IMG/VR virus record: IMGVR_UViG_3300014914_000004
Coordinates: 1 to 64,000 of that record
DNA length: 64,000 bases
DNA from: a virus
Reading direction: 5' to 3' (one strand)
Part shown: piece after piece, positions 3,643 through 47,803 of the stretch
Layout: every line of letters starts with the position of its first letter
How positions within the stretch are numbered: position 1 is the first letter of the stretch
Position numbers and translations under genes: made by a program
The notes under the pieces: model-generated
Seen by the model: only the letters and a program-made list of their open reading frames with translations
Databases searched by the model: none
What the model was told of the DNA's origin: nothing

Positions 3643-3651
3643 TGGTAAAAG
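3643..3651 (+). promoter_or_regulatory. candidate phage promoter motif TGGTWWAAG
   Basis: TGGTAAAAG after a terminator and 31 nt before ATG 3683; same motif at 18862(+) and 27285-27293(-). Confidence 0.45.
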
Positions 3652-3838: not shown

Positions 3839-4093
3839 ATGACCTCCAAGTTATTCGGCGGATACCTAATTGTATCCTTCGTCACTTACGGCATTTTGTG
3901 TCATATGATACATAACCTTCAGCCGACTATAATCAACTCTCCCATCGCCCAAGAGGAGTGCCTTTCGGCCCTAAAAATAGGCCGCACAACAAGCAATGAA
4001 CATTGGGAGATGTTCGTAGACTGCACTGAGGACTTGGACAGATATGCCAAACACTCAAAGTCTCTAGTATGTCTCGATGAGATTACACACTAG
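3839..4093 (+). CDS. hypothetical protein with N-terminal hydrophobic segment
   Basis: GGAG RBS; LFGGYLIVSFVTYGILC. Confidence 0.6.
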   Translation: MTSKLFGGYLIVSFVTYGILCHMIHNLQPTIINSPIAQEECLSALKIGRTTSNEHWEMFVDCTEDLDRYAKHSKSLVCLDEITH

Positions 4094-4175
4094 GTATTAC
4101 ATACTTAGAAAGTATTCCGCACGATAAGTACATCTCCAGAGCAGACGACTACAAGAAGTGGAAGGAAGAAAACTA

Positions 4176-4379
4176 ATGTCCATAGCTAACCCAAGACTCC
4201 ACATCATCTGCGGGATATGTGGATGCAACAATGAGTTAATCTACGAGATAGTAGGAAGAGAGGTTCCTGGAAAACACTTGAATGTCCACATTCGTTGTCG
4301 CAATTGCGACTCTTTAACCGAGTTGCGTGAGGTGATGGAGGCGAAGATACAGTACAGCAAGAAGGAGAATGTCAAATGA
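4176..4379 (+). CDS. zinc-ribbon protein
   Basis: CGICGC...CRNC; ATG at 4176. Confidence 0.65.
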   Translation: MSIANPRLHIICGICGCNNELIYEIVGREVPGKHLNVHIRCRNCDSLTELREVMEAKIQYSKKENVK

Positions 4380-4798
4380 GTATCAGTTCAGATGGAGTTA
4401 TCTTCTTTGGTTTCTCTCTAGGCAATGAAGAAGACCGAGAAGAGGCATTACCCTGGGAGATCCTAGGGGATGATTGGGACTGGGATGACTACTTGGCCCA
4501 AAAGATGGGTATTGTGCGAGAGAATTACGCAGAGTTTGGGCTATACTATGACGCGAGGAACAAGGCTATTGCCGAATTGGGATGTGAAGTGTACATCCAC
4601 GGTGGGGACTACTGTGTAGCACACGATATCGCATTGGTTTCCACGTATAAGTCCGCTTCTCGCGGTTGTCCTGTTACGCTATCGCAAGACCATTTCAATG
4701 TGACAGAGGAAGACATTGCCAAACTAAAGAAGTTCTGTGAGTTTCTGGGAGCAGAGTGGCAGGAGCCCTCCTGGATTCTGACTAGTTGGATGGGCTAA
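4376..4798 (+). CDS. acidic hypothetical protein
   Basis: AAGGAG RBS; ATGA coupling. Confidence 0.75.
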   Translation: MSISSDGVIFFGFSLGNEEDREEALPWEILGDDWDWDDYLAQKMGIVRENYAEFGLYYDARNKAIAELGCEVYIHGGDYCVAHDIALVSTYKSASRGCPVTLSQDHFNVTEEDIAKLKKFCEFLGAEWQEPSWILTSWMG

Positions 4799-5013
4799 TG
4801 GCATTCAACGACGAAAATTGGCTAACCTCCACCTTAGATTGTGGAGATAATTCGTGTTATTACCGGGACAGAACGAAGCCCTCAGGCATGCGTACCAATG
4901 GTGGCTGCAGGTGCTTCTCGGTCCTAACATCCAAGAAGCAGCTCTTTGTTAATAAGATGCTGTGGACAATCAAGAAGCAGGAAGAGGAACTAGAAGACCT
5001 GCGAGGAAAATAA
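4798..5013 (+). CDS. Cys-rich hypothetical protein
   Basis: TAATG coupling; CGDNSC...GMRTNGGCRC. Confidence 0.7.
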   Translation: MAFNDENWLTSTLDCGDNSCYYRDRTKPSGMRTNGGCRCFSVLTSKKQLFVNKMLWTIKKQEEELEDLRGK

Positions 5014-5030
5014 GCAAAAGGAGGCGTACA

Positions 5031-5576
5031 ATGCTGAATGAGTTGTTCCAGATAGTTAACAGGAGTCTCGACAGGGACCAGATGCTACAAATTTTCGAGA
5101 CAGAGGACGACGCAGACGTGAGGCGCGGAGACAACTGTGCAAAGTTGCTATGCAAGAAGATAGGGAAAACACACGACGTTGATGCGTCGGATGGCGCGCA
5201 GATAACTCAGGCGCAGGTTATTGTTGCGGATGTTAAATTCCAGTTGGACCGCTTACTGCATCACCTGTATCGCCACATGCAAAGCCTGTTAGGAGAAAGT
5301 CAGATGAAAATAGAGGAGCTGATTGCAGTTGTTGACGCGGCGTACGATGACGGCCTGATTCTCAAGTACTTTGAGTCCCCGGACGAAGAGCATGGAGATG
5401 GGCTCGCTCGGTTTATCTGCCGGGAGATTCACGAAACATTTAGTACAGAGGCGTCGGATATTGAGCAGGTAGGAGAAGCTCAGAGAGTTATTGCAGTGGC
5501 ACAGAAACAAGTGGCACTTGTAAATTTCTCCCTACAGAAGTTTCAGGAAAGGTTGGAGAGGGAGGCAGAAGAATGA
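5031..5576 (+). CDS. tandem two-domain hypothetical protein with internal start at 5304
   Basis: AAGGAGG RBS at 5031; second AGGAG RBS plus in-frame ATG at 5304; the two halves are homologous. Confidence 0.7.
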   Translation: MLNELFQIVNRSLDRDQMLQIFETEDDADVRRGDNCAKLLCKKIGKTHDVDASDGAQITQAQVIVADVKFQLDRLLHHLYRHMQSLLGESQMKIEELIAVVDAAYDDGLILKYFESPDEEHGDGLARFICREIHETFSTEASDIEQVGEAQRVIAVAQKQVALVNFSLQKFQERLEREAEE

Positions 5577-5935
5577 AGGTCACGTTCTACTTGGTAGCAA
5601 TGACCCGCCAGGAATGTACGATAACTCGAGAGGTTCCTGACGACACTACAGACGCCATGTTGGATGCTATGGCGCTTGATATCCGTGAATCTGCGGATGG
5701 CTCTGAATACACAGAGGACATGGAGTATTGGGAGGAGGAGCCGGCGCGTTGGGAAAAGGTGAAATGTAACTGTGTAGTGCGGCACGCCAATACCCCTGAA
5801 GAGCGTAAGGAGATTGAAGACCGGATTGAATATCGCAAAAGAAATAACGACCTCCACGGGATTGAAATAATGGAGCTTCAATTGGAGAACTCGAGATGTC
5901 CCGCACGCCCGGCTAGTAGTTCCGATGAGGGGTAG
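5573..5935 (+). CDS. hypothetical protein
   Basis: GGAGG RBS; ATGA coupling. Confidence 0.7.
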   Translation: MKVTFYLVAMTRQECTITREVPDDTTDAMLDAMALDIRESADGSEYTEDMEYWEEEPARWEKVKCNCVVRHANTPEERKEIEDRIEYRKRNNDLHGIEIMELQLENSRCPARPASSSDEG

Positions 5936-6134
5936 TCCCGCAGCGCAAAGTCTGTACCTACTGGGTTTCGTAGATGGTGTACAGCGTAAAGTTCCTGATG
6001 TGCTTATTGTAGATCAGGACCTGGAAGCCCAGTATGGTGCAGGGTATCAAGAAGGTGAAAAAGCAATACAAAATATAAAGGACAAGGTGGAGAATGGAAA
6101 TTACACCAGTGGATATCCCGGAGGGGATTTGTAA
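5925..6134 (+). CDS. hypothetical protein
   Basis: Fills the gap; GF.DG...Y.AGYQEG motif. Confidence 0.55.
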   Translation: MRGSPAAQSLYLLGFVDGVQRKVPDVLIVDQDLEAQYGAGYQEGEKAIQNIKDKVENGNYTSGYPGGDL

Positions 6135-6678
6135 CCGCCACGAGGTGTCCAAGTTTGAGATCAGCGCATTGGATGCACTCAGGTATAACGCAACAGGACG
6201 CAGACCTGTGGTTCCCGGTAAATACACACGCCTGGTACGCCTGTCAAAAATACCAGCGGTTGTTATGTCTGATACCCTAGTAGAGCGTGAAGATCATCAG
6301 AAATTCATCGACACTGCTTACGGGACAGTCCTTGTTAACGGCTTAGGGCTAGGCTTGTGCATTGCACCTTTAATGTCTAATCCTGACGTCCTCAATGTGG
6401 TAGTAGTGGAGAAGTCGAAAGATGTAATATCTTTGGTATCCCCTACGTATCGGAAGCGTTATCCGGAACGTCTGGAGATCGTACACGCAGACGCCTATAC
6501 GTACGAGCCGGAGACCCCTCCAGATGTAGTCTGGAATGACATATGGGATACTATCTGTGCTGATAATCTAGCAGGGATGGATGAGCTGGAAGCCAAGTAT
6601 TGTGACGCTGACTGGTGTGAGTCATGGTGCAGGGAGAGGTGTGAGTCTTTAGCGGCCAGGTGGGCAGTAGGAGATTGA
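6094..6678 (+). CDS. class I SAM-dependent methyltransferase-fold protein (spermidine synthase-like)
   Basis: Motif I VLVNGLGLG, acidic end of beta2 (VVEKS), HADAY, DVVWNDIWD. Confidence 0.75.
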   Translation: MEITPVDIPEGICNRHEVSKFEISALDALRYNATGRRPVVPGKYTRLVRLSKIPAVVMSDTLVEREDHQKFIDTAYGTVLVNGLGLGLCIAPLMSNPDVLNVVVVEKSKDVISLVSPTYRKRYPERLEIVHADAYTYEPETPPDVVWNDIWDTICADNLAGMDELEAKYCDADWCESWCRERCESLAARWAVGD

Positions 6679-6682
6679 GAGC

Positions 6683-7144
6683 ATGGGAATTACATTAGAA
6701 CAGGCTAAAGCGGAGATGCACGAGAAGATGCACGACGGGGTGGTGTGCCCCTGTTGTGGAGGGAAGGTGAAGGTCTATAAGCGCAAGCTGAGCAAGGATA
6801 TGGCTAAGTTTCTTTTGATGGTCGTCTCCAAGTACCGAGAGGCAGTAAGATTCTACGCGACGAATGAGGTTATTCAGGGTGGAAACAAGAATGCCACAGA
6901 TGGAGTATACCTGGTACACTGGGGCCTCCTAGAGAAATCAGACGATACGAACAGGGGAGTGCAGGGTGTAGGGCTGTACAGGCCTACTTCAGAAGGGATG
7001 CACTTTGCGTACAATGAAACATATGTACCGACACATGCCCATCTGCTTAATAAGAAGAAAATAGGGGAAAGTTTTGACCGTACGAACATCAAAGGGGTTT
7101 TGGGCGCCGACTACGAAGCGCTCAAGCTTTACTACTTATCTTGA
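6683..7144 (+). CDS. putative Zn-ribbon/winged-helix DNA-binding protein
   Basis: CPCC then helical region, LVHWGLLE...GLYRPT..G wing-like segment. Confidence 0.55.
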   Translation: MGITLEQAKAEMHEKMHDGVVCPCCGGKVKVYKRKLSKDMAKFLLMVVSKYREAVRFYATNEVIQGGNKNATDGVYLVHWGLLEKSDDTNRGVQGVGLYRPTSEGMHFAYNETYVPTHAHLLNKKKIGESFDRTNIKGVLGADYEALKLYYLS

Positions 7145-7355
7145 GAAGACAGTTCCAGCCGAGAAGACGTGTCTGCACTGTGGCGCTGAGTGGGAAGTAG
7201 AAGGCAAGCTTCCACGGTTTACTACCAGGGCGATACAGGTGACGGATCCGACGCACAAGAATGCGGTCTGGTGGGTCTGTCCTGACTGCGGCGCGTCCTG
7301 GGACGCACGCACGGGACAGAAAACTAAAGAGGGGGTTGGTAGTCCAGTGAAGTAG
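7074..7355 (+). CDS. zinc-ribbon protein (start uncertain)
   Basis: CLHC...WVCPDC; ends just before the terminator. Confidence 0.5.
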   Translation: MTVRTSKGFWAPTTKRSSFTTYLEKTVPAEKTCLHCGAEWEVEGKLPRFTTRAIQVTDPTHKNAVWWVCPDCGASWDARTGQKTKEGVGSPVK

Positions 7356-7374
7356 CGTTGCGAGTACTACAAGA

Positions 7375-7416
7375 GGAGGTAGCAGTCTTAATTGACTGCT
7401 GCCGTCCTTTTTTTTT
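7375..7416 (+). terminator. intrinsic terminator closing the accessory cluster
   Basis: GGTAGCAGTC-TTAATT-GACTGCTGCC stem followed by T9. Confidence 0.85.
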
Positions 7417-7476
7417 GATCTTTAGCCTATACTTTCAAACGTAGGCTTTACGGAGTAATCTAGTAAGAGGAGTCGC

Positions 7477-8112
7477 ATGTATACTGTGCAAATAACTAAC
7501 ATCAGTACAGGGGTCGTAGTGATCCAGGATCCTTACCCCTCAGAAGGCCGGCTGACTATCCCCCTAGATCCCGGAGAAGTAGAGACCCGTGAGCTCATAG
7601 ACTCCCAGTATGATCGGGTAAAAGCACAGCTTGACTGGCACGCAGGGGACGGCAGGATCACCTACACTGCGTACAACGGTCCTGCCAGTAAAATTATGAA
7701 TGATTCAGGTGTGCCGGGCTTAACCGTAAAAGAGGCGCTGGATAACCTGGCCGGAGGCATAACAGGTACTTCTGATATGTTTTTGTCTGGAGGACGAGAA
7801 GGGGCAGCTATATCCAACGTGTATCTCCGGGGTCCCGGGGGAACTCCTACGAATCAGTCAGGGTTCGTTATCCCGTACGACGCTACTATCGTAGCCCTCA
7901 GTCTTGCAACTACGGGCGCACACACCTGGACGCTAGAGGTGCGCAAGAACAATAATCCTGCAGTTATCGCGTCACTTACAGTTGCTGCTTTAGAGCGGAC
8001 GTATGACAGTACAATTAATGTAGATATTGATGCTGGAGATGAGCTTCAACTGTATTGTAACGGTACAAACATCAATGCACCTTCAGGGTCCCTTGTACTG
8101 AGGAGGAGATAA
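7477..8112 (+). CDS. putative virion fibre/decoration protein
   Basis: GAGGAG RBS; TVKEALDNL trimer-type motif; beta-sandwich C-terminus (IDAGDELQLY). Confidence 0.6.
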   Translation: MYTVQITNISTGVVVIQDPYPSEGRLTIPLDPGEVETRELIDSQYDRVKAQLDWHAGDGRITYTAYNGPASKIMNDSGVPGLTVKEALDNLAGGITGTSDMFLSGGREGAAISNVYLRGPGGTPTNQSGFVIPYDATIVALSLATTGAHTWTLEVRKNNNPAVIASLTVAALERTYDSTINVDIDAGDELQLYCNGTNINAPSGSLVLRRR

Positions 8113-9017
8113 TGGTTGGCGTATACCTAACTACCACAGGAACGTTGGATCCTATAGTAATTGACGATATGGGAGCGCTAACGTTCCCGCATCCGACAGT
8201 AGCATACAACTTGCTGTTAGACGTGACTGAGGATGAGATACAAAGCTCTGAGGACCTCCAGACATTAGTTACTGCGGGACATGTAACACTGGCGGATGAT
8301 GCTGGAGACCCGATTACGGATGTGCATGCCGCGGGACCACACCACCATCCTATTGGAGACGTAGATAATCTGCAGACTGAGTTGGCTGCCAAGGCAGATA
8401 CCCCCCACGGAACTGCCGACCATACGGGGATTATCGGGACACATGCGCAAATATCGGTGGTGGGGGTCGATGACCATCATGCTGAAGACCACGCGGCACG
8501 CCATGCTGATGGCGGAGCTGACGCCGTAAAGTTGGATGATCTCGCTACTCCGGACGACAATACTGATTTAGACTCCAGCACATCACGTCATGGCCTTCTC
8601 CCCAAGTTAGGAGGAGGTACCTCTGATTTTTTGAGGGCAGACGGCACCTGGGTAGTTCCTGCAGGCTCCGGACCTAACGTGGACACCGTGTCCACCGTTG
8701 GGGCTATTGTGACTACAATAAGCACGATACCTATCCCGGATGACACAGTACTATTATTTAAGGTTAGCGTAGTAGGCCGTCGAACAGATGCTCCAGATAG
8801 AGCTATGTATGTTCGGTGTTTCGGCGTGTACCGTGAGAGTGCGGGGGTGGCTACATTAGAAGGGGCATTGCAGACACTTCTTACTCGTGAATCAGCGCCA
8901 GGCTGGGACTGCACAGTATCTGTTTCAGGCAACAATGTATTAGTACAAGTATTAGGGGGTGTAGGGCACAGTGTGGATTGGAAGTGTGAATATTTTGACG
9001 GAGTGGAGGTCAGCTAA
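8112..9017 (+). CDS. His-rich fibre protein
   Basis: HHH/HH..H...H motifs, FLRADGTW fibre motif, C-terminal domain shared with 33458 and 35070. Confidence 0.65.
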   Translation: MVGVYLTTTGTLDPIVIDDMGALTFPHPTVAYNLLLDVTEDEIQSSEDLQTLVTAGHVTLADDAGDPITDVHAAGPHHHPIGDVDNLQTELAAKADTPHGTADHTGIIGTHAQISVVGVDDHHAEDHAARHADGGADAVKLDDLATPDDNTDLDSSTSRHGLLPKLGGGTSDFLRADGTWVVPAGSGPNVDTVSTVGAIVTTISTIPIPDDTVLLFKVSVVGRRTDAPDRAMYVRCFGVYRESAGVATLEGALQTLLTRESAPGWDCTVSVSGNNVLVQVLGGVGHSVDWKCEYFDGVEVS

Positions 9018-12000
9018 TGTCCATCACGGGGACCACAGATCTAGGTAACGGGGTGTTGGCGGTCACGGTAGATCATGATCCAACCTCGGTTGCTACGGAC
9101 GCACCTGAAGGCTCAATAATACTGCAAGAAGGTACCTCGGACTGGTACAAAAAAGAAGACGACGGTGTTTCTACGAATGTAAGTATCTTAGGTGCTAAGT
9201 ACGGCAATACGCTCCTCGTGGCTAAGACAGGCGGGGATTACGACACTATTCAAGCTGCGATTAATGCGTCCGGTGCCAATGATACGATCATTATCCACCC
9301 CGGTACGTACATAGAAGCCGTGACGACTAAAGCTGGAGGCTCCACGACGTTGGTTGGTGAGGGTGCGATGGGTAGTGTAGTCATCCAGCAGGATGCTGCA
9401 ACGGTGATGACCGTACCGGCGACTCCAATGACAATGGCGTTTATCAAGAATATCAAATTGAAGTCCAATGCGGTAGGTGCGGATCCTTCAAAGCTATTGG
9501 TGGGTGCCGGGCTGATGATGCTGTTCAGTGAAGTGGCTTTTGACTACGATATGAACAACGGCTACTGCTCCAGCATCGTAACGCTGAACGCTGGGAACAC
9601 TATTTTCACTAACTGTAAATTCGACTTTGACGGAGTTGGAACAGCTGGTGCCGAAAGTAATTTCGTCACTACTGCAGGGGCGGCAATGTTCGCCATCATG
9701 CAGGGGTTCGGCACGATGAGCGTTACTGCGGTTACAGCTTCTGAGAACCTGCATTTTATTAAAGACCTTTCTTCCGGAGCAAATAACATAAGGGATTTTG
9801 ATTGTAGATTAGATGCTTCGGGTGCGTCGTTTGCTGGTAGTTTAGATTTTTATTACGGTGAAAACTCCGGTTCGGTAGAGCTTCAGTCGAATAAGCTTCT
9901 TATCTCGACGCCCAGCGGTGCGGTAGGCTCATATGGTAGAGCTTACCGTCTTGCAGGTACGGGAGGAGGAGCGGTCCACTCGTCGGGCAATAGGGTCGAG
10001 GTAGCAGGGTTTGCGGATAACTACTTTGCCGATATTAGTGCAACCGAGACGCTGTATTCACACTTTGATGATGTGGTTGCGGCGCAGGGAACAATTGATG
10101 CGGGAACTTATCGCTACGTGAACTCGCCTTCAAATGGTGACCTGCAGCTTTCAGGTGTTGTCATTCCGAATACAATTGATGTAACGTCAGATTACGGTGC
10201 AACTGAGAGTTGGGTATTTAACGAGGCGTACTGCGATAGTTCCAGCGCATTGACTATGACGTTCCCAGTACCAGCAAGTATGGTCTATTTTCCAAATGGC
10301 TCGCGGAGAATGATGTTCAACAACGGAACCGGGACGGTCTATATCGACCCGAACGGTAACGACATTGATGGGTCTCCTGTTGAGCGCATGATTCAGCCAA
10401 ACGGCTGGTTGCATATTGGAAAAATAGACGACGAGATTCGTGTGTTGGATAGCTCGCTGTTTTCAGTCGCTATAGTTCCGACAGACATATCGAATTTGGA
10501 ATTGTGGGTGGATTTCAGTGATGCTTCGACGCTTACGATGAGCGGGTCAAGCATTACGGGAGTTGTCTCAAAAGACCCCAGCAGCCACGCCAGTGTTAGC
10601 GTAACTAGCGTACTCGCAGAACTTTCAGCATTGAACGGTAAGCAGGTTGCTGATTTTGGTGTTGGCACGAATAACTCGAATGTTGATTTTGGTGATTTGG
10701 AAGTACACGATAACACCCGCGGACTGCACGTTATCGTTGTGGCTCAAGCCAACTCTACGAATGATATGTTGGTCGCCAAGTATGGGTCGTCCAGCTTGCG
10801 TGAGTGGTATATGGGGACAAGTGTTTTTAGGAACTACGAGCTTGCTACGGGCGGCACACAAGGCTCTGCTAATTTGAATATCAGTGATATGGAGTGGTCT
10901 GTCTATGAGGCCAAGTGGGCACCGGGCGCGATAGTCAAGACCTGGATGAACGGTATCGCTTACGGAACAGACTATAGCGTGCCTAACTCGATGGCAGACA
11001 CTGCTGCTAATCTGTATTTGGGGGCCTACAATACAGGGACAAGCAGTGAGCTTTCCGGCAAAATTGCCGAAGTCATTATTTACAGTGATAATCTTACAGA
11101 GAATGAACGTGCAGGGCTGGTTAGTTATTTGTCGGGAAAATACGGACTAGCTCTCAATCCCCCGGGTCAGTCAGCAGAACTCAATGACTTGAAAGATGTT
11201 GATGCTCCAAACCCGAATCCAGGTGCTAAGCTGTTTTACAACGAAGGCACGCATACGTGGGAACAAGAGCCTCTGCCGATTTTAGTGTACAAAGAGGTTA
11301 TCTGTGCTGATTGGGCACCGACTTTGGATGATATTTACGACTTCGGTTCTACTTTGATAATTAATGCTCGGGTGAGTTTCACCAGCTTTGTTGGGAACGC
11401 AACTGTCGCAGTGCTCAACGGGCTGACTCCCACAGCAGGAGATGCTTATCTAGTTACAGACGCAGGAACACTGACAACGGGTTCCCTGGCGGTAGTTGCG
11501 GGAGACGTTGTAGTGTACAGCGGCACTGCCTGGGTAATGGGTAAGGGAGTAGGTAGCAGTGGGTACGCACAACAGGGGGTGCGTTTCCAGCTGTCAAGTG
11601 TCACGACCCTTATCGCACCGTACACGGGTTATTCAGGTGGCGAGTATCTGTATTTTGATGGCACGAGTAACACCGGAGTGGACACGGCACTGGACGTAGT
11701 TCTTACGCTGCCAGCGCCCACAGGACTCCCAGCACATGACGGGATGCTGCGAAGGTTGTATCTGGGAATCATGAGCGACACTGAATACGGTAAAGTAGAT
11801 ATAGAGATAGCGAGCAGCGGTGTTTTTTCGGATGGACTAGAGAAGGCAGAGCTCCGCAAAGATGGATCTACTGTTATGCTCGCGGCGTTTAACGCTGCGT
11901 TGCAATCTACCTGGCAACGTATTTCCAGTATGAAAGATGTAATGCAAATTCGGCGTGCCGCTACCTGGGCGGCTGCGAATTTCAGTACAGCTACTGCTCT

Positions 12001-12358
12001 TCCGTTCGACACGGCCGACACTGAGAACAACGACGCGGTATCGGAGTGGGCGATCACGCCGAATCCAAGTTATGTTTCGATAAATTACACGAGTCGGTAC
12101 ACCGTTTCCGGCTTTGCTTCATTAGATTCTACGGGCGGTAGTACGTGGACATGTGATGCGTACCTGGCAGTAAACGGGACCGAAGTAAGCGGCACCCGAA
12201 TACGTACTGGCAACTATGGAGGGGAAGATCAAGCCCTCACACTTTCTCCGATGGTACTAGACCTTGAGGATGGGGACTATCTTGAGTGGGTGTTCGATCA
12301 GGCAAGTTTGACTGGGAATCTGCGCGCAGCCACCTTATCTGTGGTATGTGATTATTAG
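9017..12358 (+). CDS. multidomain tail spike/receptor-binding protein (pectin-lyase-like beta helix + LamG/ConA lectin + C1q-like tip)
   Basis: VAKTGGDYDTIQAAINA..IIIHPGTY; LELWVDFSDASTL...SGKIAEVIIYS..L...V.YL..KYG; C-terminal LDLEDGDYLE. Confidence 0.7.
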   Translation: MSITGTTDLGNGVLAVTVDHDPTSVATDAPEGSIILQEGTSDWYKKEDDGVSTNVSILGAKYGNTLLVAKTGGDYDTIQAAINASGANDTIIIHPGTYIEAVTTKAGGSTTLVGEGAMGSVVIQQDAATVMTVPATPMTMAFIKNIKLKSNAVGADPSKLLVGAGLMMLFSEVAFDYDMNNGYCSSIVTLNAGNTIFTNCKFDFDGVGTAGAESNFVTTAGAAMFAIMQGFGTMSVTAVTASENLHFIKDLSSGANNIRDFDCRLDASGASFAGSLDFYYGENSGSVELQSNKLLISTPSGAVGSYGRAYRLAGTGGGAVHSSGNRVEVAGFADNYFADISATETLYSHFDDVVAAQGTIDAGTYRYVNSPSNGDLQLSGVVIPNTIDVTSDYGATESWVFNEAYCDSSSALTMTFPVPASMVYFPNGSRRMMFNNGTGTVYIDPNGNDIDGSPVERMIQPNGWLHIGKIDDEIRVLDSSLFSVAIVPTDISNLELWVDFSDASTLTMSGSSITGVVSKDPSSHASVSVTSVLAELSALNGKQVADFGVGTNNSNVDFGDLEVHDNTRGLHVIVVAQANSTNDMLVAKYGSSSLREWYMGTSVFRNYELATGGTQGSANLNISDMEWSVYEAKWAPGAIVKTWMNGIAYGTDYSVPNSMADTAANLYLGAYNTGTSSELSGKIAEVIIYSDNLTENERAGLVSYLSGKYGLALNPPGQSAELNDLKDVDAPNPNPGAKLFYNEGTHTWEQEPLPILVYKEVICADWAPTLDDIYDFGSTLIINARVSFTSFVGNATVAVLNGLTPTAGDAYLVTDAGTLTTGSLAVVAGDVVVYSGTAWVMGKGVGSSGYAQQGVRFQLSSVTTLIAPYTGYSGGEYLYFDGTSNTGVDTALDVVLTLPAPTGLPAHDGMLRRLYLGIMSDTEYGKVDIEIASSGVFSDGLEKAELRKDGSTVMLAAFNAALQSTWQRISSMKDVMQIRRAATWAAANFSTATALPFDTADTENNDAVSEWAITPNPSYVSINYTSRYTVSGFASLDSTGGSTWTCDAYLAVNGTEVSGTRIRTGNYGGEDQALTLSPMVLDLEDGDYLEWVFDQASLTGNLRAATLSVVCDY

Positions 12359-12367
12359 GAGGCGGAA

Positions 12368-12838
12368 ATGGCACGGACAGAGTATACGTATTCAAACTTA
12401 GTGGAGCTTCCGTGCTTTGCGTACATAGATGAGTACTTAGGACTTTCCAGTATGGCAAACAAGGACATGGTTGATATCTCAGTTAACCCTGAGCAACGAT
12501 GGCTTAAAGTCTGGTTTGATCCTGAGTTAAGTGTTGCAGATAAAGCGTTGTTCGATACAATAGTAGCGGACAGTCTTGGGAAGATAAGTGTTAAGAAGAG
12601 TAGAGAGGCTATCATGGCTGAGATACTTACGGCAGCATCTTCGGACCAGGAGCAAATGGGACGTTTACTGGACGCGCTGGACGACTACACGTCCATGTCT
12701 ATCGCCTTAGACGGCAGGAATTACGCCTTAGCTCGTTCGCGCGTGCAGAAGGTATATCTTGACGGTAAAATTACGGAGGCAGACAGGGACCTGGTACTAG
12801 CATGTATCCCTGCTGACTCGTATGTATTGGAGAATTGA
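12368..12838 (+). CDS. putative fibre assembly chaperone / hypothetical
   Basis: AGGAGG RBS; helical protein directly after a fibre gene. Confidence 0.5.
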   Translation: MARTEYTYSNLVELPCFAYIDEYLGLSSMANKDMVDISVNPEQRWLKVWFDPELSVADKALFDTIVADSLGKISVKKSREAIMAEILTAASSDQEQMGRLLDALDDYTSMSIALDGRNYALARSRVQKVYLDGKITEADRDLVLACIPADSYVLEN

Positions 12839-14232
12839 TGGCTGTTTTAGGTACTACAGATATGGGAAGAGGGGCGCGTACGCTTTTAGTCGACCACGAC
12901 CCTTTTGTAGTGGCGACAGATGCCCCCACAGGGGCCCTTATCGTTAGAGAGGGGTCGTCGACATGGTATCGAAAGCTCGACGATGGGCTCACCACTAACG
13001 TTGCGATAGATGAAGTTCCTAGTGCTGCTGCTAAATTAGAATACGGCTCTTTTTGTGTTGCCAGGGCGAATCAGGATTCTTGGAACCAAACGACATTGCG
13101 GGAGTGGATTTATTACCACGCAGCAGACATAAAACGTAATGTAAGTTCTTATTTTGGGAGTTGTTTTTTTGATGTTGTAGAGTTGGATGATTCTTCAGTC
13201 TACAGCACGTGGGAGAAGTTGCAGTTTGCAGATGTTGCAGCAATGTACACTTTTATACGCGACAATTTTGCAGAGAGCATTTCTAATCCTGGGACGCCTG
13301 CACGCCATGCGTATGTTCGAGTCTACGACATGGTGGGTCCGCAGGTTCCTAATATAGATAAAATATACGGAATTAATAAGTTTTACTCCGTATTGCGGGG
13401 CAGCAAAAACTACAGAAGTAACCCTTACTGCCTTACGTCTACTCCTAGTTGGGACTTCTTTGCTCCATGGTTCAACGATTTGTGTAACCAAAATTTCGGG
13501 TTTGGCAGCGGGCACACATATAGTGCGGGAGACGAAAGTGCACTGTGGCTAAGTCGAAATGAGCGAAAAAGATATGGGCTGCCTCATCCCGGATTCAGTT
13601 CTTACTTACAGTCTAATGTAGATAGAGCAATCTGGAACTGGGGAGATTCTAGTTTTTCCAGTCTCCCTACCCCGACAAGGTACGATAATGACCCGGCGCC
13701 TAATGGCTCAAGACATACATATTGCGGGCTACATACACAAGCGATTTCATCCTGGGAATGGGTAGATAGCGGGCCGTCATTAGGATTAGGTATTGGCAGT
13801 ATGGATAGAAGCTGGTTAGCATTGTACCACTTACAGAGCGGGATTGATTCTAACCACAGGGCAATTATGCTTAAGCCAGTAGGGATAGATCAGGCAGGAC
13901 TGAACTGGTTTGATAGTAGCAGTTACGACATATGTGCTCTGTACACCAGAAAGAACTCTACTCCTATTATGCGACAGCTCTCGTTGGCAGGGTCAAGGGT
14001 AAGTACTGTACGTGACCTTGTGTGGTTGGACATTACACAGTGGCGTCCTCCGAATCACGGACAATCACCTTCGGATTTGAGTATGAATATGGTAGGGGAG
14101 CAGCCGTACATTACCCAGTTTATGTTGCGGGACAAAGTTACACGGGAAGTATCTCCGGCTTCAAAACCTAGGATAGTGTTGTCGCAGAGACATAGAGACG
14201 CACCTTATAAGTATGAGGTAAAGCGTCCATAG
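12838..14232 (+). CDS. second receptor-binding/fibre-like protein sharing the N-terminal anchor with 9017
   Basis: TGATG coupling; first 55 aa are 32/55 identical (hand count) to 9017; aromatic-rich unrelated C-terminal body. Confidence 0.65.
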   Translation: MAVLGTTDMGRGARTLLVDHDPFVVATDAPTGALIVREGSSTWYRKLDDGLTTNVAIDEVPSAAAKLEYGSFCVARANQDSWNQTTLREWIYYHAADIKRNVSSYFGSCFFDVVELDDSSVYSTWEKLQFADVAAMYTFIRDNFAESISNPGTPARHAYVRVYDMVGPQVPNIDKIYGINKFYSVLRGSKNYRSNPYCLTSTPSWDFFAPWFNDLCNQNFGFGSGHTYSAGDESALWLSRNERKRYGLPHPGFSSYLQSNVDRAIWNWGDSSFSSLPTPTRYDNDPAPNGSRHTYCGLHTQAISSWEWVDSGPSLGLGIGSMDRSWLALYHLQSGIDSNHRAIMLKPVGIDQAGLNWFDSSSYDICALYTRKNSTPIMRQLSLAGSRVSTVRDLVWLDITQWRPPNHGQSPSDLSMNMVGEQPYITQFMLRDKVTREVSPASKPRIVLSQRHRDAPYKYEVKRP

Positions 14233-14240
14233 TTTAAGTG

Positions 14241-14330
14241 GTGGTCTGTCTGGTTAAAGTCAGGCTACATATGGCGTGTATGGTTAAAATCGCGCCGCAT
14301 TTGGTCTGTTTGGTTAAAGTCAGGCCATCT
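14241..14330 (+). repeat. three tandem 30-nt hairpin units with compensatory stems and conserved loop TNTGGTTAAART (candidate structured RNA)
   Basis: Units gtggtctgtctggttaaagtcaggctacat / atggcgtgtatggttaaaatcgcgccgcat / ttggtctgtttggttaaagtcaggccatct; every stem difference keeps pairing. Confidence 0.8.
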
Positions 14331-14382
14331 AACATTATGCTCAGTATTTCTGGGCTTAAGATACAGGGAAAGGGTACATTAC

Positions 14383-14937
14383 ATGTCTGGTTCTAAACAT
14401 ATGCTAGTGTGCCTCACGGCTTCTGACGGTTTTATCGGTAGCGCTATCCGAGGCGTAACTGAGAGCAATGTGAACCATGCGTTCATTGCGTTTTACAGCA
14501 AAGAACATAAGAGCTGGCAGGCGCTACAGACAGATCATCGTGGGCTAGTGCAGGTTCCGGCAAAGACTTTAGATTATAGGTCTATTGAGTGTTACATGTT
14601 CCCTGACCTGGACCTGACGACAGCACTCCCTGAGTGTGGAGACCTTATCGGAGACTCTTATGATTTTATCGGGATCGCCGGCTTCCTAATTAAGATATGT
14701 GTATGGCGACTTACAGGGCGTCGTATAGTGAATCCATTACATAAAAAAGGCGAGTTATTCTGCTCGGAATTCGCCGTCGAATACTTACAGAAAGTTGCTG
14801 GGATGTATTCCTGGATGAAGATGGTTAAGCCTTCCGGCGTAGCTCCTGGAGGACTAAGCTCTAGTCTGGGCGTCCCCTCTCTTAAAGAAATGCTGCAAAC
14901 ACACGATGAGGTGTCTAGGGTAGATTGCCCTTGGTAG
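14383..14937 (+). CDS. permuted papain-like NlpC/P60 (YiiX/YaeF-type) peptidase
   Basis: His before Cys: VNHAFI...IGDSYDF...ELFCSEF. Confidence 0.75.
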   Translation: MSGSKHMLVCLTASDGFIGSAIRGVTESNVNHAFIAFYSKEHKSWQALQTDHRGLVQVPAKTLDYRSIECYMFPDLDLTTALPECGDLIGDSYDFIGIAGFLIKICVWRLTGRRIVNPLHKKGELFCSEFAVEYLQKVAGMYSWMKMVKPSGVAPGGLSSSLGVPSLKEMLQTHDEVSRVDCPW

Positions 14938-14946
14938 GAGGACAGT

Positions 14947-15489
14947 ATGGTACAGGGGAGCTCGTCAGTCCCTCCCGGCGCTAAGAGGTCCAGTACTTCT
15001 TTGTACCGGGACTCGTTAAAGGACAAAGCGAATAAAGAATGGGTGGAGGTAATAGTGGAAGCGTTAAAAGAGGATATTGTCGAGACTAAAAAGATCGCAA
15101 TAAGCGGGAAGCGTAAGGCTGACCAGCCACATAGCTGCCTGCATGAGGATGATATCAAGGGTCTCGCCAAAGCGGTTAATGGCTGGAAGACTCTGAAGTT
15201 TGGCGCTGCAATTGGGTTTGTGGTTATCCTGGCAGGAGCCATAGCGCAATATTACGCTCTGACAGATAAGACGGAAGACACTGCGCAGGACGTTAAGCAG
15301 GTAACGGAGTCTGTAGAGATAATCAAAGGTGAGGTGCAGGCTGTAGCGGGAGCCATGGACGAGCATCTCGAGCAGTATGAAGAACAGAAGCGCACAGCCG
15401 ACATTGAGAAGGCAGTTGAGCTCCAGGCTATATCAGACATTGTACGTGCTGCCATAGAAGAAACCTCCTCCCGAAGACGCCCTAAGTAG
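14947..15489 (+). CDS. single-TM coiled-coil protein
   Basis: AGGAGG RBS; TM FGAAIGFVVILAGAIA followed by heptads. Confidence 0.65.
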   Translation: MVQGSSSVPPGAKRSSTSLYRDSLKDKANKEWVEVIVEALKEDIVETKKIAISGKRKADQPHSCLHEDDIKGLAKAVNGWKTLKFGAAIGFVVILAGAIAQYYALTDKTEDTAQDVKQVTESVEIIKGEVQAVAGAMDEHLEQYEEQKRTADIEKAVELQAISDIVRAAIEETSSRRRPK

Positions 15490-15491
15490 CG

Positions 15492-15848
15492 ATGTACCAG
15501 TATAGAGCAGAGGTAGTGTACGTTGTTGATGGAGACACTATTGACGTTGCAGTAGACCTGGGGTTCAAACACACCCAGGAAATGCGGTTACGCCTCGCAG
15601 GAATAGATACCTGGGAGCTACGAGGAGAAGAGCGTGCGAAGGGGCTAGTGGCGAAGGAGTACGTACTGGAGACCTTCGCGAATATGGACCCTGAAGATTA
15701 CGTGGTAATCCGCACGAAAAAAGATAAGCAGGGGAAGTATGGAAGATATATCGCTACTGTCCTTATTATGGGTAGGGATGATACTGAACTACTTAACCTC
15801 AACGATGCTCTAGTAGAGGAGGGCCATGCCAGGAGAGTGCCCTGGTGA
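15492..15848 (+). CDS. thermonuclease (staphylococcal nuclease) family protein
   Basis: VVDGDTIDV.VDLGF...RLRLAGIDTWE...GKYGRYIA...LNDALVEEGHA. Confidence 0.9.
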   Translation: MYQYRAEVVYVVDGDTIDVAVDLGFKHTQEMRLRLAGIDTWELRGEERAKGLVAKEYVLETFANMDPEDYVVIRTKKDKQGKYGRYIATVLIMGRDDTELLNLNDALVEEGHARRVPW

Positions 15849-15973
15849 CCCTTTGGGATAAAGTACTTCGAGTGGTAACTGTCTTCACATTCACAGTGGT
15901 GATCGTTTTTTTGTTTTTCTGGGTCTCATTTCTGCTAGACTGTTTCTACGTATAATTGGGAGGAGGAGCGGCC

Positions 15974-16951
15974 ATGCCTTTCGAGTCCAAAGCACAGCAA
16001 CGCTGGATGTTCGCTAAGCATCCTGCGATGGCAAAAGAGTGGGCGGCCCATACTCCTGGTATAAAGAAGCTACCGGAGAAGAAGATGAAGAAAAAGAACT
16101 CAGGGACCCGGAAAGTAGGAATGCTTGCAGCGCAGGAGCCTAACCTAGGTACTCCAGATCCTACAGGCGGGACTCAGATGTCCACCACTGCAGCACAGAT
16201 GAGTAATGCACAGAACCTTACTCCCAAGCTGACAGTACCTAAGCCTCCGGAGCAGGCCAGCGGCGGCACACTAGGAAAGCAGAGTATGGCGGCATCTCCT
16301 GCACGCAACACTTCTACGATCCCATTTAGAGAAGACGGCAGCGCCCCTGCTATACCTGATGGTACAAATAACGAGATGAATGTGTTGGAAGGGGAGACGT
16401 CTGCGTTTGATTCTGACGACAGACTGGAGAACGATTATAGTCTGGAGACTATGGGGTATTCTACTCCAGCACTTCCAAATGCGGAGGGAGAACACGCGAT
16501 GCGTACCACTACAAAAGTAAGTAATGAGCTGGAAGGCTTGCTCAATCATCTGGGAGCCACAGAAGAGAAGACTGCAGGGATCAGCCCTAAGATGGTTAAG
16601 TCTCTGATCTCTTCAGGATCATCTCTAAGTACTTTCCACGATCACGAAAAGGAAAGAAAGTCTCGCCGTAAGAAGGGAATGCTCACAAAAGTTTCCGAAG
16701 GGTCTGGCCCGATGGATGAGATGAAAGCGCAGCATATGACAGAAGCGCACGAGCAGAAGATGCGCCATAACGAAGAGATACATCAGCTTAAAATACAGAA
16801 TATGGGGCAGTCACAACAGGCCGGAGCCGAAGAAGGCGTGGAGGAACTTCCTCCTCCCCCAGCACCCCTCGAGCCTGAGCATGAGCAATCAGTGCTGCAA
16901 ACTGCCCTTCAGAACCTGAAGGACAAGCAAGTACAGATGGGTCCTTTGTAA
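15974..16951 (+). CDS. low-complexity phage protein, possibly virion-internal
   Basis: TATAAT at 15951, GGAGGAGG RBS, MPFESKAQQRWMF N-terminal phage motif; mostly disordered-looking. Confidence 0.65.
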   Translation: MPFESKAQQRWMFAKHPAMAKEWAAHTPGIKKLPEKKMKKKNSGTRKVGMLAAQEPNLGTPDPTGGTQMSTTAAQMSNAQNLTPKLTVPKPPEQASGGTLGKQSMAASPARNTSTIPFREDGSAPAIPDGTNNEMNVLEGETSAFDSDDRLENDYSLETMGYSTPALPNAEGEHAMRTTTKVSNELEGLLNHLGATEEKTAGISPKMVKSLISSGSSLSTFHDHEKERKSRRKKGMLTKVSEGSGPMDEMKAQHMTEAHEQKMRHNEEIHQLKIQNMGQSQQAGAEEGVEELPPPPAPLEPEHEQSVLQTALQNLKDKQVQMGPL

Positions 16952-23407: not shown

Positions 23408-23764
23408 TCAGACGTTCTTCTTGAAGTGATCCCAGACCTCTGCGGTGATCTGGTCGAAGGCCTTTTTGCCTCCCTGCTCTTCTGGAAAGAAGTGTCTGTT
23501 GTTGCAGTTTTCCAGATAAACAGCTGCGATTACCTCTTCCGGGCTAAGCCCGTGGTCCCTGCTGTAGATTTTGAGGTAGGTATTCAGCGCTTCAGTGCAG
23601 CGCCCTACGCTCTTAAAGAAGTCTGTTCTGCGAGCCTTTTCCATGGCGGCGTCCACTTTTTCGGGATCCTGCTTGGACCCTTCGTGCTTCACAGCCTCAG
23701 TTTTTACCCAGCCTCCCTCACCGTCAGGAAGGTCGATTGTTGTTGTAGCTGGTTTCTTTTCCAT
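23408..23764 (-). CDS. hypothetical protein
   Basis: TAATG-coupled in the - strand operon. Confidence 0.7.
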   Translation of the reverse strand: MEKKPATTTIDLPDGEGGWVKTEAVKHEGSKQDPEKVDAAMEKARRTDFFKSVGRCTEALNTYLKIYSRDHGLSPEEVIAAVYLENCNNRHFFPEEQGGKKAFDQITAEVWDHFKKNV

Positions 23765-24009
23765 TACTGATCCTTCCGATGTGCACAGTTAGGGACGATC
23801 TGGTCTGTGCGCACTATCTTCGCCTGTATCATTGCGTTGGGAGTATCTTTTATCTTTGCTCCGGGAGGGTACACGTGCTTCCCTACCCTGTTAGAAGGGA
23901 AGACAGTTAGCGCTAAACAGTACGCCTGTTTCAGCTGCTTCACTTTGCCTCCTCGCAGCCCTTTAACCAGGGGCCAGAAGTGTCCACATGTCTCACATGT
24001 CTTAACCAT
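23764..24009 (-). CDS. small Cys-rich basic protein
   Basis: CETCGHF...YC...NC. Confidence 0.7.
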   Translation of the reverse strand: MVKTCETCGHFWPLVKGLRGGKVKQLKQAYCLALTVFPSNRVGKHVYPPGAKIKDTPNAMIQAKIVRTDQIVPNCAHRKDQ

Positions 24010-47104: not shown

Positions 47105-47803
47105 ATGTATGAGCGACAACAACAGGACCTGGATCTTTGGAGACAGTGGCGCAAAAACAATAGGCAGAAAGATCTTAGCGCACTTTTAACCCAGTTGAAT
47201 CCTGTAATCCAAAAGGAAGTGGGAAAGTGGGGATCCACTGTTCCTAAGGCAGGGTTAGAGGCCAGAGCTACGATATTGGCGGTAGACGCGCTCAAGCAGT
47301 ATGACCCTAATAAAGGAGCAGCGGTAGCTACACACGTTACTAGTAGGATTCGAAAGCTCTCTCGGCACGTATATCCCTATCAGAATGTTGCACGTCTTCC
47401 GGAGAACAAACAGCTGGAGTACAACACTTTTCAGGTAGCGAACAACCGCCTCTTAGATAACCTGGGACGGGACCCTACCGTAGACGAGCTGACGGATGAG
47501 CTTGGATGGTCTAAGAAGAAAGTAACCGCTTCGCAACAATCATTTGACCGCAAGGAAATTGTGGAGTCCGTAGGTGCGTATATGGATGATGGACAGGCGC
47601 AGGAGCCTACAGTGGATTTCTACTACCATGGCCTGGCACCCACAGATCGTAAATTATTTGAGGACATTACGGGGTACAATAACCAGAAGTCCATGTCGAA
47701 CAAAGGTATTATGCGTAAGTACGATCTTACTCAGGGGCAGGTTAGCTACCGTAAGCGTAAGTTCGTAGATGATTTACGGAATATACAGCAAGGACGGTTT
47801 TAG
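47105..47803 (+). CDS. phage-encoded sigma70-family (group 3, FliA/SigB-like) sigma factor
   Basis: Region 2 ALKQYDPNKGAAVATHVTSRIR; region 3 LGRDPTVDELTDELGWS; degenerate region 4 HTH. Confidence 0.85.
   Translation: MYERQQQDLDLWRQWRKNNRQKDLSALLTQLNPVIQKEVGKWGSTVPKAGLEARATILAVDALKQYDPNKGAAVATHVTSRIRKLSRHVYPYQNVARLPENKQLEYNTFQVANNRLLDNLGRDPTVDELTDELGWSKKKVTASQQSFDRKEIVESVGAYMDDGQAQEPTVDFYYHGLAPTDRKLFEDITGYNNQKSMSNKGIMRKYDLTQGQVSYRKRKFVDDLRNIQQGRF

Follow-up and report, generated by a model that had tools for sequence, protein, structure and literature searches.

REP/BIME-type elements and phage intercistronic 3' stem-loops, such as the lambda sib/tI retroregulator, stabilise the mRNA that lies upstream of them. 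The repeats of type III antitoxins (ToxI/CptI/TenpI) are located upstream of a ToxN-type endoribonuclease gene, with which they co-vary. The integron attC site, a single long hairpin with imperfect pairing and conserved core boxes, follows unrelated ORFs and is read by the integrase as bottom-strand ssDNA, and 6S RNA is a promoter mimic of ~180 nt that forms a long duplex with a central bubble. Downstream of mtd in Bordetella phage BPP-1, the DGR target hairpin is a single hairpin with a 7–10 bp GC-rich stem and a 4-nt GRNA loop (PMC3240598). It acts as DNA and depends on the reverse transcriptase, and the structure of its stem counts over the stem sequence, with the loop being constrained (PMC3240598).

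The array reported here is located in the window, which is the whole stretch of 64,000 nucleotides analysed and the first 64 kb of a phage-like contig that encodes a tail fibre, a virion structural protein, a helicase, a ribonucleotide reductase and a sigma-like protein. It lies within the 150-nt gap between the TAG of a 464-aa ORF and the ATG of the gene for a 184-aa protein. Three hairpins are present 3' of the stop codon in 16 of the 16 genes of the 464-aa family with a readable 3' flank, on 10 phage contigs. It is highly probable, in our view, that the window array represents a structured element that is conserved and linked to this gene family. The features of the locus are as follows:

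12838..14232, + strand: gene for the 464-aa tail-fibre-like (receptor-binding-like) protein, stop TAG at 14230–14232
14241..14268, + strand: hairpin 1, 8-bp stem with 5' arm 14241–14248 and 3' arm 14261–14268, loop UCUGGUUAAAGU at 14249–14260
14272..14297, + strand: hairpin 2, 7-bp stem with arms 14272–14278 and 14291–14297, loop UAUGGUUAAAAU at 14279–14290
14302..14327, + strand: hairpin 3, 7-bp stem with arms 14302–14308 and 14321–14327, loop UUUGGUUAAAGU at 14309–14320
14339..14355, + strand: fourth, different hairpin, GCUCAG-UAUUU-CUGGGC, 3' of the array
14383..14937, + strand: gene for the 184-aa Cys/His-conserved protein, start ATG at 14383, not part of the element

The array resembles the REP/BIME elements and lambda sib/tI in that sense-strand hairpins stand past the coding region, before or at the terminator, where they would act on the upstream message. 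However, REP/BIME-type elements are dispersed or single, are untied to one protein family, and have neither a fixed number of three copies nor constrained 12-nt loops. REP/BIME-like dispersed palindromes were rejected as an identity because model R1 finds the three units only, with none elsewhere in the 78.7-kb contig or the 1.87-Mb assembly. With ToxI/CptI/TenpI the array shares tandem, direct, structured repeats of ~30–45 nt near a terminator-like hairpin and a gene for a protein of ~180 aa; unlike these antitoxins, it follows an upstream fibre-like gene, and its downstream gene is exchangeable. A type III toxin–antitoxin (ToxIN-like) identity was rejected since homologues of the 184-aa protein occur in 20 loci without an array, and arrays follow the upstream gene in 10 contigs. 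As with attC, tandem cassettes pair each ORF with a folded site of its own, and conservation lies in the structure and not in the sequence of that site; the three short, equal hairpins and their restriction to one gene family are unlike attC. The analogy to 6S RNA was drawn in the preliminary description of this locus; here there are three short hairpins, and no promoter motif is conserved in the loops of homologous arrays, and on these grounds, together with the lack of an Rfam match, 6S RNA or a promoter mimic was rejected. The DGR target hairpin and this array both lie a few to a few tens of nt past the stop codon of a phage receptor-binding gene and both keep the stem structure with a variable stem sequence and a constrained loop, and Mtd_N is present in some members of the 464-aa family. 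Unlike the DGR hairpin, the array has three hairpins, loops of 11–13 nt and sense-strand wobbles; the loop length, the three copies and the lack of RVT_1 in the complete array-bearing phages G006 and G407 led us to reject this identity.

On inspection of the sequence, 14241–14330 (+) comprises three head-to-tail units with a period of exactly 30 nt, each with a 7–8 bp stem and a 12-nt loop, and TRF reports 14242–14327 with a period of 30 and 2.9 copies. This agrees with the preliminary description, which gave all three stems as 7 bp, the stem of unit 1 being 8 bp. Hairpin 1 starts 8 nt past the stop codon of 12838–14232. The three loops follow the pattern U-N-U-GGUUAAA-R-U, and they contain TGGTTAAAG, TGGTTAAAA and TGGTTAAAG in units 1, 2 and 3, as had been stated. 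The differences among the stems consist of one C-G to G-C swap and G-U wobbles, with hairpin 2 carrying compensatory changes relative to units 1 and 3; all of them keep pairing, as previously claimed, with 96% of cells paired vs 33–44% when the partner column is slid. The RNA fold of the + strand reaches −36.4 kcal/mol (z −4.72, with 0/200 shuffles as good) and that of the − strand −14.4 kcal/mol (z −0.90). Since units 1 and 3 share their stem, the left arm of unit 1 can pair with the right arm of unit 3, and it does so in the minimum-energy fold, which is nested. This form and the three separate hairpins are thus two competing folds, a detail on which the preliminary description is corrected.

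The terminator scan of 14241–14355 gave no intrinsic-terminator-like site, with loops too long and no U-run in the window, and no sigma-70-like promoter was scored at the array. Rfam 15 gave no match at E up to 10 over 13500–15000 of the window. The sequencing runs with phage sequence are DNA metagenomes only, from sediment and hydrothermal vents; independent vent-sample DNA contigs show 7 SNPs in 1301 nt and 0 in the array, numbers too small to be informative. Contigs assembled from one vent metagenome (run X5) end on either side of the array (window 14211–14341), probably because the repeat disturbs assembly.

The window array belongs to the upstream gene 12838–14232 and not to the downstream gene. 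The true start of the upstream gene is ATG 12838, which overlaps the stop of a 156-aa gene (ATGA). Its 464-aa product founds an unannotated phage receptor-binding-like family, with 251 clusters at 50% identity in a profile search; the closest homologues are P0023–P0026 (53–58% identity), and Pfam recognises nothing in the family except the Mtd_N anchor domain, which 7 of 78 members carry. The 464-aa protein and the 1113-aa virion protein (9017–12358) match at 58% identity over an N-terminal module of 57 aa, after which they diverge completely. This shared module suggests that 9017–12358 and 12838–14232 may encode alternative receptor-binding proteins on one attachment site. The AF2 model of the 464-aa protein has a pLDDT of 89, and fold searches with it gave no clear relative, only a generic Ig/FN3-like beta-sandwich (best Z 6.8) and weak tail-protein matches, and the ESM Atlas yielded none of use. 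The family is basic, with a median pI of 8.5 and a median net charge of +6 over the last 40 residues. No family members were found in the scan of genome contigs or in 400 genomes of the assembly's phylum. Single flanking proteins used as IMG/VR queries gave no relatives, and the relatives came from alignment-based searches. Beyond the window end, the same phage contig carries a reverse transcriptase gene (RVT_1, E 5e-18; contig C1 65369–66508, − strand), near which blastn found no template/variable repeat (TR/VR) on the window's contig.

The sample of arrays consists of the family loci returned by IMG/VR scans, and the family genes with an array are that of the window, four in G005, two in G006, one in L103, two in L105, and one each in L106, L107, L108, L109 and L115. 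The array-bearing proteins reach down to about 21–24% identity and include one 757-aa fusion. Across the family, the stems have 6–8 bp, the loops 11–13 nt, the spacing is 30–33 nt and TRF counts 2.6–3.0 copies, with the first stem 5–19 nt past the stop in the script-parsed arrays. One divergent unit each in L107 and L115 had to be assigned by eye, and the G005_d array has an irregular unit that fell outside the script criteria. Sequence is far less constant than geometry. In L097 (47% identity), a TAA TAG double stop is followed at 9 nt by three 30-nt hairpins, with loops UUUGGUUGUAAU and UUUGGUUAGAAU and with stems that differ from those of the window yet are complementary. L098 (45% identity) has the same geometry with the unrelated loop CGAAGYGUCAGU, and in the AT-rich L109 three hairpins of unrelated sequence keep the 6-bp stem, 12-nt loop and 30-nt spacing. 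In G005 there are four paralogues in tandem, and every one of them has a separate array with a loop of its own.

Two loci show additional arrangements. In L099 (IMGVR_UViG_3300017971_000328), on the reverse strand at ~4025–10170, four tandem fibre-like paralogues are each followed by their own triple-hairpin array with different loops, and further ORFs with the N-terminal anchor only come after the four paralogues. In L106 (3778–4160 and 4304–4381), the family gene is separated from its array by a small Cys-rich, zinc-ribbon-like ORF, and a second repeat of 30-nt period lies past the array.

The array usually precedes a fourth, terminator-like hairpin. A U-run stands directly 3' of the third hairpin in L105_1 and L108 and of the fourth hairpin in L109, and other arrays are closed by GNRA or UUCG tetraloop hairpins. 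The hairpin at 14339–14355 corresponds to the tetraloop or U-tract hairpin at the end of the arrays of relatives. The proposal that the array stands at the 3' end of a late structural message is supported by relatives in which U-tract terminators follow directly. The genes downstream of the other arrays are unrelated to the 184-aa gene. No array was found behind the non-family fibre genes inspected, namely the G006 beta-helix spike and the 1113-aa gene of the window, both of which have the N-terminal anchor.

We define the triple-hairpin motif by a 6–8 bp stem, an 11–13 nt loop, a closing Y-R pair and a bulged U, all present in the window array, together with a spacing of 30–33 nt and a start within about 20 nt of the stop of a 464-aa-family gene. 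Rfam gave no match at the homologous arrays in 8 loci (E up to 1), which extends to the relatives the earlier statement that no known RNA family is present, and nothing on such an element was found in the literature searched. It is a previously undescribed structure-conserved element. An IMG/VR search with a DNA pattern of two loops returned 67 loci, all of them chance matches or simple repeats and none hairpin-embedded in a comparable context. A loose triple-hairpin scanner was unspecific, with ~1 match per 13–47 kb of background sequence.

Conservation of the structure was evident in an ungapped alignment of 27 units, in which 98.8% of cells are paired vs 69% after shuffling (0/500) and 22–45% when slid, and all 7 pairs covary, with double changes; the units were picked with six of the stem pairs, whose pairing is thus partly built in, and not with the seventh (closing) pair. 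The closing pair joins loop base 1 to base 11 and leaves base 12 (U) bulged, and it reads C-G 14 times, U-A 4 times, U-G 3 times and A-U once. G-U pairs occur in several arrays, and there are 0 A-C mismatches among the inner six stem pairs of the parsed units. The covariance model scores 85–90 bits on the sense strand vs 18–25 bits on the antisense strand. The G-U pairs without A-C mismatches and the sense-strand scores point to a single-stranded form of the sense strand, most simply mRNA. The preliminary description had suggested selection on single-stranded sense-strand structure, and the covariation, the G-U pairs and the strand asymmetry of the window fold (z −4.72 vs −0.90) support it. 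Periods of 31, 32 and 33 nt are present in the family, and the array is therefore non-coding, with no translated repeat.

Covariance model R2 was built from six arrays, and the window array, at 84.4 bits, is one of these training rows. In the held-out test, R2 located four unseen arrays at their exact coordinates, with 39.1, 38.6, 23.5 and 15.5 bits. With default filters it returns the training arrays only; with the filters off it returns four more, and not the arrays with 11-nt loops or the AT-rich arrays. A covariance-model search for structure-conserving homologues had been proposed at the outset, and by the recovery of these four held-out arrays such homologues exist.

Within arrays, the units differ at 6.9% of loop positions vs 14.6% of stem positions. 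The loops are thus about twice as conserved as the stems, so their sequence is constrained. From one array to another the loop varies freely in its 5' half but leans towards K-A-R-A-G-U in its 3' half, and the bulged U is common to the arrays. Loops of the window's type, G-N-UUAAA-R-U, are also present in G005_b, G006_f (23% protein identity) and the AT-rich L107 and L115. Sites complementary to any loop were found at no more than chance level within 5–16 kb of its array, and a protein that reads the loops would be the simplest inference. The motif TGGTWWAAG stands 25–35 nt upstream of the first gene of three operons, at 3643 (+), 18862 (+) and 27285 (−), where it reads TGGTAAAAG, TGGTTTAAG and TGGTATAAG, and these may be extended −10 promoters. 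The position upstream of three operons had been described correctly; the number of matches outside the array (4 vs 1.9 +/- 1.4 expected) is not significant by count alone. At 23961 (−), the nonamer TGGTTAAAG occurs flanked by a short inverted repeat inside a small CxxC ORF (23764–24009, −), a match probably due to chance because it lies within coding sequence.

Homologues of the 184-aa protein encoded downstream of the window array have 46–76% identity (closest P0002, 76%), and C10, H32, C70, H120, C127, S128 and E129 are invariant across 20 sequences, a pattern that suggests a putative cysteine peptidase or amidase. The family it founds is well conserved; Pfam gave nothing for the 184-aa protein up to E 0.1, and neither protein flanking the array matches Pfam or PADLOC at the thresholds used. 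In relatives, the 184-aa homologue is translationally coupled to the 156-aa gene and to the tail genes with no array in front, and the array is absent from 20 of the 20 loci with a homologue of the gene. In the nearest available relative, L077, the 156-aa homologue abuts the 184-aa homologue with an ATGA overlap, without a family gene and without an array. Since gene and array are both absent there, 12838–14382 is a cassette of ~1.5 kb. The unit had no match in four whole related phage records, and blastn of window 13000–16000 against 50,697 phage records gave no match.

Considering these results, we propose that the array is a cis-acting module at the 3' end of the fibre mRNA, which would form a barrier or insulator just upstream of the terminator and whose loops would dock a protein, and we put the probability of this reading at roughly 0.45. 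The position after the stop codon, the sense-strand bias, the closing U-runs or tetraloop hairpins and the co-inheritance with a mobile gene all point to such a module. We infer that RNA rather than ssDNA is the acting form and that the element stabilises or insulates the message. The element consists of three evenly spaced hairpins, usually followed by the fourth, terminator-like one; in each of the three, a stem of 6–8 bp is topped by a closing Y-R pair and a bulged U and carries an apical loop of ~9 nt ending in ARAGU. It is inherited with genes of the one receptor-binding family, and in their mRNAs it would stand within the 3' untranslated tail. It would mark the 3' end of the fibre transcript and protect it from 3'-to-5' exonucleases just upstream of the terminator, so that a gene cassette moving between phages would be a self-contained expression unit, and the sequence-constrained loops would serve as docking sites for a putative protein. 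The lack of a terminator-like site at the array in the window and the nested minimum-energy fold weigh against a 3'-end module. A generic stabiliser or terminator, moreover, does not explain the constant count of three hairpins, nor the greater conservation of loops than of stems, nor the restriction to one gene family.

Because simple stabilisation explains neither the count of three nor the constrained loops, a reading in which the array binds the fibre or a chaperone is kept alive. Here the loops would dock the encoded fibre protein or a dedicated chaperone, and three copies would be tethered for homotrimer assembly in cis or would feed back on their own expression. We regard this as possible though unlikely. 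The hairpin count is always three, the loops are sequence-constrained within an array and different between arrays, and adjoining paralogues with a near-identical N-terminal anchor each have their own loop type. The gene product is also the only co-transferred protein, the cassette having entered a phage whose relatives lack gene and array, and the basic character of the family would suit RNA docking. However, the AF2 model has no known RNA-binding fold, and the loop class does not track protein similarity, as the window shares the GNUUAAARU loop with the distant proteins of G006_f, L107 and L115, whereas G005_b and G006_c, which are 45% identical and have the same C-terminal tail, differ in their loops. 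The more specific idea that the three hairpins tether three fibre (or chaperone) copies to their own mRNA, with the result that paralogues with a common anchor would assemble as pure homotrimers, seems to us quite unlikely; if true, the tethering would be an mRNA-templated, cis-acting assembly device or a stable fibre–RNA particle, carried with the mobile receptor-binding cassette. An action of the element as DNA, with extruded hairpins or cruciforms as recombination or mobility sites of the fibre cassette in the manner of attC or the DGR hairpin, is very unlikely in our judgement. The gene and array do behave as a cassette, and in the tandem cassettes each ORF is followed by its own structured site; stem structure prevails over stem sequence and the loop is constrained, as in the DGR target hairpin behind mtd (PMC3240598), and some family members have the Mtd_N domain. 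The wobbles, however, which as G-T are confined to the sense strand, are A-C mismatches in the other cruciform arm, and the 11–13 nt loops are not GRNA tetraloops and come in three copies rather than one. The two complete array-bearing jumbo phages, G006 and G407, have no reverse transcriptase, and the loops differ between cassettes, so there is no common recombination core; no recombinase was noticed beside the cassettes.

The remaining readings were assigned little weight. Cutting of the repeats into small RNAs of ~30 nt, which would act in trans as a type III antitoxin-like inhibitor or an anti-defence decoy, is highly improbable. The tandem units of 30–33 nt, the terminator-like hairpin and the ~180-aa gene in the window resemble the toxI–terminator–toxN layout, and three units could fit a 3:3 complex, but the 184-aa gene lacks an array in all 20 related loci, other arrays have unrelated genes downstream, the flanking proteins lack Pfam or PADLOC matches at the thresholds used, and the units are simple hairpins and not pseudoknots. 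The type III antitoxin mimic named in the preliminary description thus fails on the same facts, as the array follows the upstream gene. That description had favoured a decoy titrating sigma/RNAP and had named tandem promoters as an alternative. We regard a promoter decoy of RNA or ssDNA, or three hairpin-embedded promoters that show a −10-like motif to the phage sigma/RNAP, as a remote prospect. The loop sequence TGGTTAAAG does resemble the three motifs upstream of operon starts, the 3' half of the loop across the family, KARAGU, is loosely like TAnAnT, and a sigma-like gene is present at 47105–47803. Against this, homologous arrays have quite different loops, and the four unrelated loops within one phage, G005, cannot all mimic one promoter class. 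The loop class of the window recurs in AT-rich phages with very distant family proteins, the motif is at chance level outside the array, no promoter-like site was scored at the array, and Rfam gave no 6S-like match. The array is separated from the next gene by a terminator-like hairpin and tracks the upstream gene whatever is downstream, which speaks equally against tandem promoters. Translation of the array, whether through read-through past the TAG into the frame downstream or from a small ORF (GTG 14238–14396) with a 10-residue repeat, is hardly credible. Beyond its TAG, the frame of 12838–14232 meets no further stop across the array and runs on into ATG 14383, another frame is likewise open, and a 30-nt period equals 10 codons; yet a double stop, TAA TAG, precedes the homologous array of G005_b, a repeated peptide could not survive the periods of 31, 32 and 33 nt of other arrays, the distance from stop to first stem varies from 5 to 19 nt, and the differences between units are compensatory for pairing.

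Receptor-binding proteins determine the host range of phages and are exchanged as cassettes. The results link one large family of them, unannotated so far and comprising 251 clusters at 50% identity, to an obligatory structured nucleic-acid element. The array is a simple genomic marker for this fibre-gene family in metagenomes. If the array binds its own gene product, it would represent a new kind of phage ribonucleoprotein. If it controls fibre expression or assembly, it would add a new regulatory layer on host-range genes, and the array would have to be kept when such fibres are moved between phages.
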